From Eledone cirrhosa (Eukaryota), in NCBI GenBank assembly GCA_964016885.1, contig OZ024744.1, positions 72,726,001-72,790,000 on the forward strand: DNA of 64,000 bases, written 5' to 3'. Below the pieces are notes generated by a model. That model was not told the DNA's origin and did no database searches. It saw nothing but the letters and a program-made list of their open reading frames with translations. A program made the translations under genes and the position numbers. Below are positions 5,407-51,560 of the stretch, piece after piece. How positions within the stretch are numbered: position 1 is the first letter of the stretch; the number at the start of each line of letters is the position of its first letter.

Positions 5407-5449
5407 ACGATGCTGACGATAGCTAATAAGCTTGAAACTAGTACATCGT
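5407..5449 (+). ncRNA. Minimal type I hammerhead ribozyme (canonical core)
   Basis: ACGATG-CTGACGA-t-AGCT-aata-AGCT-t-GAAAC-TA-GTA/CATCGT: 6-bp stem I, 4-bp stem II, palindromic ACTAGT stem III, GUA cleavage triplet. Confidence 0.85.
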
Positions 5450-5698
5450 TCCTGTGTCAGTGTTGAACAAAAAGGTGACGTGGTTGCCTAAACACTGTAC
5501 GGCGTAATTCGGGCTGTTTGTTTGTTTACAAACAAACAAACCGAGCATTATAATAAATGTTCGGTAAACCGATACGTGCATGTATATATGTGTGCATGTA
5601 TGTATATATATACATACTACTGTACGTCTGTATACATATATGTATGTATGTATACATACATACATACTTATATATATATATATATATATATATATATA

Positions 5699-6612
5699 CC
5701 TTGTACAGCAATTACAGGAGAAGTACCTAGCTAACAGTAAACCTCTCTACTTAGCTTTTGTTGACTTGAAGAAGGCCTTTGACAGTCCCATGCACCTTAA
5801 TCTGGTGGGTTCTTAGCAAACTAGGAGTGGAAGAATGGCTTGTGAGAGCTATACAAGCCATGTATAGAGGAACAGTCAACAAGGTTAGAATTAACGATGA
5901 ATATAGTGATGAATTTAGCGTAATAGTAGGGGATCACCATGGCTCCGTTCATAGCCCCCTCCTGTTTATTATTGTCCTACAGGCTATAACAGAGGGGTTT
6001 AAGACTGGTTGCCCATGGGAACTTCTATATGCAGATGATCTCTCGTGCTGAATCCATGGCTGAACTAGAGAGGAAGTTCCAAACATGGAAGCATGACCTT
6101 GAATCAAAAGGCCTTAGAGTCAACTTGTCTAAGACTAAGGTTCTAGTATGTAGAAAGGAGAATAGGGTACAGGTACCCTCTGGGAAATGGCCATACTCAG
6201 TGTGTAGGAAATTTTATGGGTACATAAAAGATGTAGTGGGATCAGAGGTAAGCCATCTAAGAATGTAGATTTTATATGTGGCTGATATTCAGGTACAGTA
6301 AGTAGCAAGGACCCACTGGATGATATCGCCTTCAACTGCCCAGATGGTTCTATAGAAATAGTAGACACCTTTTGTTACCTGGGTGACAAAATCAGCAGTG
6401 GAGGACGGTGCTCTGAAAGTGTAGTAGCCAGAGTTAGAGCATGATGGAAAAAGTTCAGAGAGCTAATACCGCTGTTGGTCACAAGGGGTTTTCCTCTAAA
6501 AATGAAGGGAATATTGTATGATGTATGTATACGAACGGTTCCATCAAACGGAACAAGACTGTCTAACCCAGGTTAGCGTGGAAGATGGACGTTAAACGAT
6601 GATGATGATGAT
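5699..6612 (+). mobile_element. RTE-clade LINE fragment (RT region plus 3' end with (GAT)n tail), frameshifted and internally deleted
   Basis: QLQEKYLA..KPLYLAFVDLKKAFD and PWELLYADDL motifs; homologous to 61190-62060. Confidence 0.9.
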
Positions 6613-6618
6613 ATATAT

Positions 6619-7099
6619 ATCTATCTATCTAGGGTGGGTAAAATTCCCAAGATCCATGGATGAGTTCTCTCCAGCAGTCTCTGTCCCTCATTATCACTGC
6701 CATGTCCTACATCTCCAAGAGACCAGTGTCTGTCCTTAGGGCATCAACATATGTTAACCTCGGTCTTCCTCTTCCAGTGTGTCCATGCAGGGGCTCCCAC
6801 AATAGCACTAAGTGCAGTGTCAACTTTTGGGAGGCTCCTGTACTGCTCTGAGTTCTTCATATGTTTGGGCGCAAACATTGGGAATACGGAAGATGATGTG
6901 GCGTGCCACAGCTTGAGATCGGTGTGGAAGTCGGACCTTCGTAAAGACCTGAAGATCCGCCTCTTCGTTGCTGTAGTGGAGTCTGTGCTGCTGTACGGGT
7001 CTGAGACTTGGACACTGACCAAGAAACTCACTCAGATGGTGGATGGGTGCTACACGAGAATGCTGAGGATGGCTCTGAACATTAATTAGTATACACTGA
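6619..7099 (-). mobile_element. RTE-like LINE (second family, (AGAT)n tail) with a 5' inversion
   Basis: 6619-6860 is the minus-strand 3' end; 6861-7099 is the upstream part on the plus strand ([32 protein letters not shown]). Both match 57326-57715. Confidence 0.85.
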
Positions 7100-10079
7100 T
7101 ATATATATATATGTGTGTGTGTGTATATGTGTATATGTATATGTGTGTAATGTATATATATACATATATCTGTGTGTGTGTGTATACATGTGTATATATA
7201 TATATATATATACATACATGTATCTGTATGTGTTTGTATATATGTATATTTATGAATATATGTATGTATATATATGTCTGTCTGTCTCTCTCTCTCTCTC
7301 ACACACATACATATATTGTTAGATGGCAATAGTGTTGATTTATTAATTGCCATTGTTATGTTTTACTTTAATATGTACATCAGCCCCTACCCCCACCCGA
7401 TCCCATCACTACTTTCTGACTGTAAAGTTGTCATTTCACATAGGGAGACAAGTCAATAGCACTGTCTGTCTGTCAGTCCCCTTGACCCTTATTTTCTCCA
7501 CCATCATATACATTTCCTTCTTTCTCACTCTCCTTCTCTCTCTCTCTCTATCTATCTCTATCTGTCTATCTTTATCTCTTTCTTTTGTTAATAACAGGAC
7601 AATGAAGTTGTAATAATTATTGCTTGACATTAAGGTGGGAAGAGTGAAGGAAAGAGAGAGAGAGTAGTAGAATCAGTAAATTGGTGGACAAAATTCTTTG
7701 TAGTATGTATTTAGTAGTTGTACATGAATATATATATATATATTTTTATATATATATATATATATATATGCAAACACACCCACACCTGTAGGTACATGTG
7801 TGTGTGTGTATGTACACATATGTGCACGCACACACAGACGCACACACACATATATGCAAGCAGGGAAAAGCGGATGTAAAATGATGATGATGATGATATA
7901 TATATATATATATATATAAGGAGCTTGAATGCCCTGAGGTTTATTACAATTGACTTCTACCTTTTTTCCTTGGGAACTTTAAGTCCATATGCCATTGTAT
8001 GAGAAATCAATAATTACTACTTGGCATCAAACATGTTTACTGTTATTCTTATTATTGTTTTACCTCAAGTCATCTCTCATCCATCAGATTTCTCATTGAA
8101 TGTGTACCAGCTATGACCTTCTAAATGTTTAACTCCTTAGCTATCTACCCAGCCACAATGGCTTCCGGTTCTATGAAATAAAGTTTTCCAATTTAAACTA
8201 AAATTTTCCAACATAATTTTATAAAAGAACCTTACATTAATTTACTATCTTAGTAATGAAATAATTAATAGTTTTATTAAATCCTTCAACATTTTTCATT
8301 AATTAATTAAAATAGTGTGTATTTCATTAGAAATGTGGGTCAGGAGGGGTTAGTTTTTTGGTTTTTTTCAGGCATAATGTATCTAAGACTACCAAATGTG
8401 CCCTTCCACTTTTCTCTGTTAGCTTGGGTGGGGCAGGGGGTAGTAGGTAGGTTGAGACCATGTAGAAGCTCCTTGCTTAGTTTGTTGTTAAGGATTTGGA
8501 AGAACTATGATCAAGTGTGTGAAATCAAAATTCTTATCCCTGGATTTGCAATCTAGTGTTTTGTTGTTTTGTTGCAAACATTGCATTGTGTTCCTGTGGC
8601 TCTGTTTGCTCTTTATTAATCTATCTTAGAACTACAACAAGAGTGACTCTTTCCCCTAGACTATGGCTGAAGTAGAAAACTGCCTACTTAAATGCTGTGC
8701 AACATTTAATGATATCACTTTATGTTCTTAGTTCAAACCACACTATGGTTAACTCCTTCCTTTACAATAAATCAAATTGACACCAGTAATTGATTGTAAT
8801 TATTTTAATTAATCGTACATAGCTTCTCAATCAATTTTCCTTCAGCCTAAGGAAAAGAAATTGTTACTATTTCTTAAACTGAAACTGTTTAGTTGGGGAG
8901 GGAAGATCAATGTCCATGGGCTCTATCAGGGCCTCAAAGACTTTTGTGTGGGAGAGAGGTAGGTAGGAATGTAACTTCATACTGGAGACTTTGTCTGAAA
9001 GCTTGTAACAGACTGGACTCTATTAAAAACACACTTGGGGCAGGTAGTGGTGTTAAACCAGGCAACAGTGGAATGTATAACATTTTCTTCACTGACCTCT
9101 TTGTAACTGAGTTTGCAAGTACGCTTATCTCTTGATTAGAACCATTAAGGCAATTTTTGAACCAGTGTATCTGGCAAGAACATGTAGAGATAGGCTATCA
9201 GTGTCTGCAGCTTATCGGCATAGCTGTAAAATATAAAATGTTATAAGGGCATGACGAGTTGAGGCATAAGTAACATTTGACCTAATGCTATCAGAAATCT
9301 TCAAATACTAGTGTACTCATGTCATAAATTCCAGTTCTTTAGAATCAATTTCAATTTCTTCTGTTAAATTTTCCTTATAGTTGTAAAATTCCCCCTTGGT
9401 TTTGGACTATTTATTCTATGCTATCTTTCCATCAATCTTAAGGAAATGTCAAAGTTGTTGAGAAGAAATTGGAATGCAAATATGTTTGTTTGTTTATCTT
9501 TTTTTTTTTTTATTTAAGAAAATATATTATTCGGTTTACATTACCAATTCCACCCATACCTGACCTGACCCCTTAAAAAAAAAAAAAAATTGAAATGAAA
9601 ATGAGTTTCTACATGTTCATAGAAATAGGAGCTACATTGCCCTCAACTCTTACCTTACTGGCTTTAGAAGAAGGATACATTGGATGGTGCTGTTTTAGAA
9701 ATACCAAATGATTGATTGGTCAAGTTTGGAATACCATTTGAGATAGAATTGGTGAGAACAGTACTATCTATATTAAATGAGCTATGCTCAGTAAGATTCT
9801 GTTGAATTTTTTAGAGGACCTTGAAAGACTTCAGATGACTCTTTAGACTATGTTCTGAAATATTAAATGTTCAAATTGTAAACAGGTTTGTTTGGCTTTC
9901 TAGCCCACTATATCTTTCATATCTTCATCTGTAATGCATTGTGTATCATCCCCAACACCACTACCACCACCATTATTCTGGATTGATAGAATAAAGTACC
10001 AATCTAGTACTAAAATGACTTACAAGCTTTGTACCTATATTAGACACAATTATTATTATTATTATTATTGTTGTTATTT

Positions 10080-50693: not shown

Positions 50694-50711
50694 TATGTGT
50701 GTGTGTGTGTG

Positions 50712-50895
50712 TGGCTTCTACAGGACTAGAACTGTTTCATTCAAAGGAAATCATGGCTTTCCTGATGACTTCCTTTGAATGAAACAGTTCTAATCCTATA
50801 GAAGCCATTTCTATATTAAATTTTATATACACTCTACTAATGTATTGAGTACCTTACTGACTGTGGTTATTCCCAATTGAACTCGGGACTCACAT
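50712..50895 (+). mobile_element. ~185-bp HHR fold-back micro-element, copy 2
   Basis: HHR at 50753-50808: ATGGC-t-TTC-CTGATGA-cTTCctttGAAt-GAAA-CAG-ttctaatc-CT(A)-TA/GAAGCCAT; antisense arm at 50712-50754. Confidence 0.78.
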
Positions 50896-50994
50896 ATATC
50901 TCTATATATAAAAATATGCACACACACCCACATATATATATATATATAAATTTGGATTTATTTTTATATGTACATATATCACTCTAGTGGTGTT

Positions 50995-51250
50995 CATCAT
51001 CATTTCATCATCATTTCATTTTACGTCCGCTTTTTCCCTGCTTGCAAGGGTGGGACTGATTCTGGGGCTTGATTTCTACAGCTATCCAGCCCTTCCTAAC
51101 ACCAACCTCATTTCTACAGCTGAGTAAACTGGAGCAATGTGAAATAAAGTGTCTTGCTCAAGGAAACAACACATCACCCGGTCTGAGAATTGAACTCACA
51201 ACCTTTCGATTGCAAGGCCAATGCTCTAACCACTAAGCCATGTGCCTCCA
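50995..51250 (-). mobile_element. Family B SINE (internally deleted)
   Basis: Reverse complement of 50348-50693. Confidence 0.88.
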
Positions 51251-51483
51251 TTTATATATATATATATATATATATAGAGAGAGAGAGAGAGAGAGAGAGA
51301 GAGAGAGAGAGAGAGAGTAAACCGTGTGTCTAAAATTACAAGGGTTGAAAAACTACATTTGTTTGAAATATTTAACCAAGAAGCAGACTCAGTATTTTTA
51401 TACTTGGAGCTTAATAGTTACAGGGTTCCAATTGGAGTTTTAACTCTAATTTTCATATATATATATATATATAGTATAGAGAA

Positions 51484-51560
51484 TGAGGAGTCAGGTTCAA
51501 TCTGTAACAGGTCCTGCCTCGAGCAGATTGACGAAGAAACATATGTAATATGTTAATAAA
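51484..51560 (+). ncRNA. 5'-truncated hammerhead-like motif with extended stem II
   Basis: TGAGGA-(46 nt with TCAATCTG/CAGATTGA)-GAAAC-ATAT-GTA..AATAAA; C3 and the 5' strand of stem I are missing. Confidence 0.55.

Follow-up and report, generated by a model that had tools for sequence, protein, structure and literature searches.

Hammerhead-bearing 3′ ends of Penelope-like elements and retrozymes in TA repeats of Eledone cirrhosa, with a tail hairpin as candidate start signal for reverse transcription

Introduction

The reverse transcriptase (RT) of Penelope-like elements (PLEs) is the sister group of telomerase, and the choice of its template and the origin of one-tailed, inverted insertions are still open questions. 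Among the described PLEs, the Hydra clade stands closest to the elements treated here: its members target (TA)n and carry hammerhead ribozymes (HHRs), and a single one is on record from an octopus (Craig et al., 2021; PMC8557442), and a one-sided tail and an inverted 5′-truncated copy are given as PLE traits in the same source. Here, a stretch of 64,000 nt from Eledone cirrhosa (contig OZ024744.1, positions 72726001-72790000; genome 2.996 Gb), called the window below, was analysed, in which an earlier reading of the letters (the original prediction) had placed about 11 dispersed HHR loci associated with TA microsatellites. These loci are 3′ ends of PLEs and retrozymes lying in (TA)n, and the RT start is likely determined by a hairpin that follows the ribozyme, a reading to which we give a probability of roughly 0.75.

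In vitro, cutting and extension by a PLE protein involve both strands of the target and do not require HHR cleavage, and the protein is predicted to form a dimer (Frangieh et al., 2024; PMC11167929). Minimal HHRs number about 2,000-9,000 per genome in schistosome, coelacanth and Xenopus (Cervera and de la Pena, 2014; PMC4209133). The mussel has about 5,000 HHRs, and the 28-Gb axolotl genome as many as 120,000 (Cervera and de la Pena, 2020; PMC7229834). Core variants are on record as well: U3-A8 was already known from schistosome PLEs (PMC4209133), and U3-A8, A6C and U4C are named in PMC3088659. A PLE origin of non-LTR retrozymes has been argued in a preprint (Li, Clavereau and Pollet, 2026; 10.64898/2026.07.22.740005), and mobilisation of animal retrozymes by PLEs has so far been inferred from co-occurrence and homology. 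The available text of two further papers, PMC13282606 and PMC8967140, does not mention ribozymes.

Hammerhead ribozymes in the window and in the genome

The original prediction of pairable type I HHRs at about 11 loci survives at the level of families, but not for each copy: all 11 loci belong to multi-copy, HHR-bearing families (F1 to F11; Table 1), and only seven arms in the window pass the descriptor. These seven (cores at 5413+, 18767-, 24930+, 27878+, 45556-, 45957- and 50203+), four canonical and three with a variant core, have a type I core, three pairable stems and an open stem I. Elsewhere the stems are broken (19623+, 20771-, 28041+ and 50762+), G12 is lost (24131- and the inverted copy near 27739-) or the CUGA box is absent (38941 and 51484). 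The density nevertheless exceeds the shuffled control, with four canonical matches in the window against a mean of 0.28 (maximum 2) in 25 local dinucleotide shuffles; a stricter scan, requiring at least 3 bp in stems II and III and allowing three core types, likewise gave four matches, against a summed shuffle mean of 0.15. By blastn, only the two copies at 50200 and 50753 are linked among the window copies, and a loop II motif is common, as judged by eye, to the family copies of 20771, 28041 and 51484.

Outside the window, a random sample of 59 evenly spaced 10-kb stretches (589.8 kb) contains 40 canonical HHRs; its 10 shuffled versions contain 0-2 apiece. Extrapolation gives about 2.0e5 canonical HHRs, or about 67 per Mb (bootstrap over stretches 1.1-3.0e5), an estimate that excludes variant cores and loops longer than 45 nt and leaves small contigs unsampled. 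For two family motifs the sample forecast 30,476 and 10,159 exact copies, and exact counting over the genome returned 20,026 (F4) and 10,575 (F1, 30-nt core), with reversed-pattern controls at 0. Over all collected loci (numbered with L), 116 HHR matches fall into 30 clusters, most of them without clade assignment and one an unrelated satellite; the stems differ among the clusters while their pairing is kept. The HHR system is genome-wide and not peculiar to the window, and self-cleavage of its members is predicted from their letters.

The probability that these motifs are chance matches in A/T-rich palindromic DNA is practically nil. An Rfam scan of the window showed no HHR model among the 150 matches listed of 269, shuffled DNA yields about one match per 590 kb, and six of the nine U3-A8 matches in the sample come from one unrelated satellite, all of which would fit with chance; it is refuted by the shuffles of the sample, by the exact family counts with their empty reversed-pattern controls, and by the core-pair controls, in which C3-G8 gave 38 matches, C3-A8 none and U3-G8 one. 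MicroRNA matches in the same Rfam scan were rejected as TA/CA repeats.

Two side observations concern the census. In L037, a Hydra-type open reading frame (ORF) ending near 5496 (-) is followed by an HHR, found by eye, with a loop II of more than 100 nt that the descriptor missed, and the census is likely low because HHRs of this type escape descriptors. Cluster C12 (L002 3222-3266 and 13 other listed places) is frequent and has a U3-A8 core with well-paired stems; its listed copies all stop 24-28 nt past GAAA, with no tail seen.

Identity of the elements

The loci are very probably the HHR-bearing 3′ ends of PLE families, together with non-coding tandem retrozymes, in (TA)n. They had been read as a radiation of short PLE-derived or retrozyme-like elements; the PLE origin, the retrozyme members, the (TA)n setting and a common hairpin hold, but most traced loci are truncated longer insertions, 5′-truncated and inverted, with copy-specific junctions and anchor-to-anchor distances from -29 to 4021 nt. 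Nor are all loci in the window micro-elements, the F2 and F4 insertions measuring about 1.0-1.1 kb and that of F9 about 2.1 kb, while PLE coding sequence is confined to one window locus, as had been claimed.

A link between the families and ORFs with GIY-YIG and RT was found in part, namely for F2, F4 and F7 (Hydra-type) and for F5 (CCHH-type). In L014, F2 has a single 585-aa frame with YRDD and a terminal GIY-YIG endonuclease, that is, RT followed by a C-terminal endonuclease; neither this protein nor the endonuclease fragment in the window found a match in Pfam, and the protein was recognised by its motifs. A genome search with the fragment gave 150 scored matches, of 53,633 first-look candidates, at 82-100% identity. 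The F2 sequence P0001 has a CxCX5C linker, lacks CCHH, and has CxxC and CxH beside conserved E and N. F4 runs into a contiguous related ORF with the same linker (L019 and L029), and DKG is changed to DKT both in F4 (L029) and in L120, which is 89.6% identical to P0001. The N-terminus, where the RWK motif is sited, is reached in none of the 14 F2 loci examined. F2 carries a canonical HHR at its 3′ end and is inserted in (TA)n, as in the Hydra clade, and it resembles Hydra-1_Obim in a sequence comparison by eye. In F7, a Hydra-type endonuclease fragment lies between the arms (L057), and F5 runs into a CCHH-type endonuclease (L104), placing F5 alone within one of the three clades Neptune, Nematis or Penelope/Poseidon, and F2 and F4 outside them. 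Naiad was rejected for F2 and F4, which combine a C-terminal endonuclease with a circularly ordered type I HHR, whereas Naiad has an N-terminal endonuclease and no canonical HHR.

Two further links to ORFs were discarded: the internal RT fragment in L113 sits after the long end of F6, and in L037 a TA run and the HHR of another family intervene between F10 and the ORF. In F9, the HHR is preceded by about 2 kb of family-shared sequence with no PLE protein match, and 12 further loci showed no endonuclease belonging to it.

F1 and F8 have the layout of non-LTR retrozymes, with non-coding tandem units of one type I HHR each. The tandem periods of F1 are 437-448 nt (L076, L078 and L085), and its longest stop-free frame has 75 aa; those of F8 are 491-496 nt, by a marker downstream of the HHR, with a longest stop-free frame of 98 aa and no locus seen with two whole HHRs in tandem. 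At the other nine loci no tandem units were found among 10-30 loci per family at most, the copies being single or inverted arms.

In L060 (5970-8038), a 311-nt non-coding HHR unit, likewise a non-LTR retrozyme by its layout, occurs in about 4.7 tandem copies on the minus strand and 2 on the plus strand, and (TA)n holds both of its ends, the long as well as the short. A further stretch, L022 3294-4488 (-), has matches in L017, L024, L035, L042, L060, L062 and L116.

That most loci are independent non-autonomous micro-elements moving as short units is decidedly improbable. F1, F8 and cluster C6 are indeed non-coding tandem units, the copies of F3, F6, F10 and F11 are almost all short, and the roughly 2 kb of F9 have no protein match; against this, the junction spacers vary from copy to copy, a complete ribozyme is missing from many arms, and PLE ORFs are contiguous with four of the families.

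Two ends and inverted pairs

Copies stop either at a short end or at a long end about 35-170 nt further on, mostly running into (TA)n: over 17 families, TA follows within 14 nt after 104 of 125 short ends and 112 of 179 long ends. F1 and the 311-nt family of L060 have the same two-ended layout by eye. When head-to-head inverted pairs of the 17 families were counted with duplicates removed, 100 pairs comprised 87 long with short, five long with long, one short with short and seven unclassifiable, hence 87 of the 93 classifiable pairs join a long and a short arm (F1, with ends read by eye, and C6 are omitted from these totals). The random-sample subset is important for such counts because tail-bearing queries favour long arms, and it gave a like result, its 27 pairs comprising 23 long with short, two long with long, none short with short and two unclassifiable. 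Anchors lie less than 130 nt apart in 17 of these 27 pairs, so that the truncation is at the ribozyme or within it. Sister arms are closer to each other than the family median in 54 of 74 pairs, with 4 ties; this likeness points to one source template, does not separate two starts from a fold-back, and could owe something to gene conversion.

Solo tails, that is, a hairpin and tail with no HHR body, occur between TA runs (L070 6439-6612, L180 and L007 1-106), with several families stacked in one microsatellite.

A conserved hairpin in the tail

At 4-15 nt past the short end, an RCUC begins that pairs with GAGY across a 1-2-nt bulge on the 3′ side and an upper stem whose sequence varies among families, in 15 of the 17 families with both ends mapped and 15 of 19 overall. 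The offsets were checked by eye, with alternative reference copies for F3, F6 and F11; automatic tail mapping alone recovers the hairpin in 12 of 19 families, against a shuffle mean of 0.3 (maximum 3). The outer pair is A-U in 10 families and G-C in five, never mixed, and the upper stem reaches at least 3 bp in 13 of the 15 families, compared with 4.2 when the partners are permuted (0 of 20,000). In a MAFFT alignment of the 12 families with short loops, 98.6% of cells are paired and the covariation is 0.424 versus 0.196. A tight descriptor counts 22 hairpins with A-U against 2-4, 11 with G-C against 0-2 and none with A-C, 33 in total against about 4.

Beyond this genome, the motif can be made out by eye in consensus sequences that the supplement of PMC8557442 gives for a coral (Hydra-2_Amil) and a sea cucumber (Hydra-2_Ajap and, in two places, Hydra-1_Ajap). 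A description of it was found neither in the available text of that paper nor by a literature search.

A layout of HHR, often AATAAA, hairpin and (TA)n had been proposed for most loci and is borne out by a hairpin covariance model, built from the 12 short-loop families (F2 in the training set, F4 held out), which gave 10 matches in the window, nine at the loci already listed and one new. In 10 of 17 families an AATAAA stands after the HHR and before the short end, where shuffles give 2.5, and in some it is the A/U-rich 3′ strand of stem I.

Several families with G-C hairpins and tails that run into (TA)n have no canonical HHR within 170 nt upstream (L019 2333-2373, L018 4330-4370, L042 2042-2082 and L074 2837-2876).

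Core variants

Three window families have non-standard cores, U4A in F4 (24930) and F8 (45556) and U3-A8 in F5 (27878). The variants are family traits in these three: A stands at position 4 in all 17 matched copies of F4 and all 10 of F8, and position 3 is U in 7 of 7 copies of F5; the F7 copies divide into two with U3-A8 and two with C3-A8. U4A is unnamed in the available text of PMC3088659 (Figure 5 aside) and, Lunse et al. (2017) excepted, in the literature search. The Hydra PLE F4 and the retrozyme F8 agree not only in this core but also in having a longer stem III and a hairpin of the G-C form. Palindromic stems III would predict cleavage as dimers; in the U4A families stem III is monomeric and longer. 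With more than 20,000 exact copies, the U4A core amounts to a natural test of how much the hammerhead core tolerates.

How the insertions may arise

A role of the hairpin as RT start signal is judged somewhat better than even from its position and pairing. By analogy with the anole PLE in vitro (PMC11167929), the Hydra protein would dock on the hairpin while its endonuclease nicks both (TA)n strands, and cDNAs would be primed at the short site on one strand and at the long site on the other, from one source RNA. Both cDNAs would often stop at or inside the folded ribozyme and then be joined into micro-palindromes, and F8, which retains the hairpin, would borrow the Hydra protein. In its widest form, this becomes a tentative proposal with slightly less than an even chance: throughout the Hydra clade, from corals to this genome, the hairpin would be the element on which the RT docks, and a PLE dimer makes two hairpin-set starts on one RNA at both (TA)n strands at once, and retrozymes would be mobile by keeping the signal.

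Fold-back offers a somewhat unlikely alternative, in which a single cDNA from the long end folds back or switches template, pairing of an A/T-rich stretch with the second (TA)n nick sets the short end, and the hairpin is a barrier or landing mark. It predicts the long-with-short pairs and the likeness of sister arms equally well, many pairs are near-perfect snap-back palindromes (the close anchors of the random sample), and TA-like bases precede the hairpin in most families. In the anole PLE in vitro, however, both tail boundaries are RT starts on RNA (PMC11167929), and the longer 5′ part can lie on either arm: L007 and L152, for example, have the ORF on the short arm, the window on the long one.

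It is improbable that the hairpin lies near the short end incidentally and serves some other purpose, for instance as a DNA site that the endonuclease recognises, as a promoter, or as a signal in the 5′ UTR of the tandem unit that follows. The tail of Drosophila virilis Penelope is required for endonuclease recognition of plasmid DNA (PMC11167929), and the tail is the start of the next unit, the motif opening the Hydra-1_Ajap consensus; but compensatory changes with G-U pairs and the fixed 3′ bulge point to a single-stranded RNA structure, and the offset from the short end stays at 4-15 nt throughout the 15 families.

Against the reading of the hairpin as an RT start signal stand several observations. 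RNAalifold recovered the lower stem alone; the tight descriptor was tuned on the same families, and a loose one gave no enrichment (120 vs 102-127), while its combination with (TA)n has an unfair control because shuffling destroys repeats. The hairpin is not universal because F1, F5, C6 and C11, two-ended as they are, lack RCUC/GAGY, and in the other three of the six novel published Hydra consensus sequences the motif is unclear in the supplement. The choice of reference copies was made by eye, and kinship among several of the families leaves perhaps 8-9 independent lineages. Past the long end, a second hairpin appears only in F8 (weak, 12.5-16.3 bits) and Hydra-1_Ajap; past the F2 long end there were nine pattern matches and no read-through copy. 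In 16 of 74 pairs the likeness of the sister arms falls below the family median. Finally, no ORF was traced for F3, F6, F9, F10 and F11, and the ORF link of F7 rests on a single locus.

As a short, covarying structure at a fixed offset, the hairpin allows a precise mutational test in the existing in vitro assay, and the long-with-short rule constrains the insertion mechanism.

Features of the window

The features of the window are collected in Table 1. In DNA contigs from runs X1-X3, loose ends of F2 reach into (TA)n at 18701; the depths of these contigs do not measure copy number and were not taken for it, and no empty-site allele is readable. No RNA run is listed as containing the F1 stretch, which is uninformative about expression.

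Table 1. Ribozyme-bearing ends, tail hairpins and associated features of the window (positions count from its first letter)
Feature	Position	Strand	Remarks
F1, partial unit of non-coding tandem retrozyme	5328-5669	+	unit ~444 nt; short end in (TA)n
F1, canonical HHR	5407-5449	+	stem III palindromic, stem I of 6 bp; cleavage predicted after 5443
F2, inverted 5′-truncated Hydra-clade PLE insertion	18637-19693	both	long arm (-) 18637-19373 with tail; short arm (+) 19374-19693
F2, C-terminal GIY-YIG endonuclease fragment	18921-19394	-	CxCX5C linker, no CCHH
F2, intact minimal type I HHR	18731-18773	-	opposite copy 19617-19660 (+) has broken stem I
F2, tail hairpin ACUC/GAGU	18671-18704	-	directly past short end; 24.2 bits, training-set family
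F3, long arm with tail	20560-20848	-	hairpin 20598-20631; inverted remnant 20793-20848; HHR with long loop II and one mutated stem II base
F4, inverted Hydra-clade PLE end	24063-25093	both	short arm (-), G12A, predicted dead; long arm (+)
F4, U4A-core HHR and hairpin	24925-24975; 24994-25053	+	hairpin 19.4 bits, family held out of model
F4, third partial arm	23999-24047		
F5, inverted pair	27572-27998	both	U3-A8 HHR 27874-27913 on short arm (+); long arm (-)
F6, long arm	28016-28272	+	HHR 28036-28126, long loop II, stem III mismatch; degraded long-loop hairpin
F7, snap-back micro-palindrome	38781-38983	both	truncated within stem II, no CUGA box; long arm (-), hairpin 38823-38860; longer copies carry TTGAGAA or CTGAGAA core
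Extra tail hairpin outside the earlier list	39136-39174	-	20.6 bits; no HHR found upstream
F8, partial unit of non-coding tandem retrozyme	45265-45571	-	unit 491-496 nt; U4A HHR 45485-45564
F8, degraded GCUC/GAGC hairpin	45276-45315	-	
F9	45810-47940	-	left end exact, right approximate; canonical HHR 45916-45968, hairpin 45834-45869
F10, micro-palindrome	50146-50343	both	(+) arm with HHR core 50203 and hairpin 50268-50301; (-) arm half
F10b, second micro-palindrome of the F10 family	50714-50897	both	core 50762, stem III mismatch; hairpin 50823-50856
F11, long arm truncated before CUGA box	51488-51667	+	hairpin 51582-51620, then (TA)n

Among other repeats, a 25-nt tandem repeat at 1331-3304 (79 copies, 87% matches) has long periodic frames of up to 498 aa on the plus strand. 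Non-LTR retrotransposon ORFs lie at 40780-42489 (+) and 59431-62476 (+), each with RT followed by a PHD-like finger and the second also with an AP-type endonuclease match; LINE-type RT remnants lie at 55363-56661 (-) and, in pieces, at 30452-33352 (-). Three tRNA-like matches of equal score (28.1 bits; 44682-44739, 50358-50415 and 51183-51240) are probably heads of tRNA-derived SINEs. The stretches 19733-20059 and 50333-50659 are 96% complementary, and 26014-26328 is a long imperfect palindrome of a common repeat, with no HHR core, that gave the highest-ranking Rfam match, below the gathering score.

Comparison with known systems

With the Hydra clade as presented in the available text of PMC8557442, Hydra-1_Obim included, the elements share RT followed by GIY-YIG, the CxCX5C linker, the lack of CCHH, DKT, CxxC and CxH near the end, a type I HHR on the 3′ side, (TA)n, inverted 5′-truncated copies and a tail at one end. 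They differ in number and in tail length: few families are given there outside cnidarians, and tails have 30-40 nt, whereas here there are about 30 HHR clusters (most without clade assignment), an estimated 2e5 HHRs and tails of about 35-170 nt. The hairpin, the long-with-short rule and the U4A and U3-A8 cores are not described for the Hydra clade in that text.

PAc, the Anolis Poseidon element (PMC11167929, as far as consulted), shares two internal RT starts that bound the tail, cutting and extension of both strands, an A/T-rich target, a stem-loop at the start region and an HHR upstream. It belongs to another clade, and its starts lie inside an AC-rich stem-loop of the ORF, whereas the short end of the present elements is placed 5′ of a hairpin with a bulge, which is conserved from family to family and between phyla.

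Metazoan non-LTR retrozymes, as treated in the consulted parts of PMC7229834 and 10.64898/2026.07.22.740005, agree with F1, F8 and C6 in their non-coding tandem units (311-496 nt here) with one type I HHR each, in occurring as monomers and multimers and in coexisting with PLEs. Mobilisation by PLEs is inferred in these papers from co-occurrence and homology to PLE pLTRs; the retrozymes here, known from DNA alone, bear the insertion footprint of PLEs, and F8 shares hairpin and U4A core with a Hydra PLE, unlike the published evidence for retrozymes. The dispersed minimal HHRs of PMC4209133, in the part of it consulted, share single motifs, opposite-strand pairs 100-700 bp apart, many divergent families, U3-A8 and a palindromic stem III.

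That PLEs contain HHRs, target (TA)n, and have inverted ends and a tail on one side is known already. The conserved tail hairpin, the near-strict pairing of long with short arms, the U4A core common to a Hydra PLE and a retrozyme, and the scale were not found in the literature searched and appear to be new. If the hairpin is a docking element, no cis element would have been defined earlier for any retroelement RT related to telomerase, and retrozymes would have a direct way of being mobilised, in what is, by a rough comparison across studies whose descriptors differ, the most ribozyme-dense genome among those compared.

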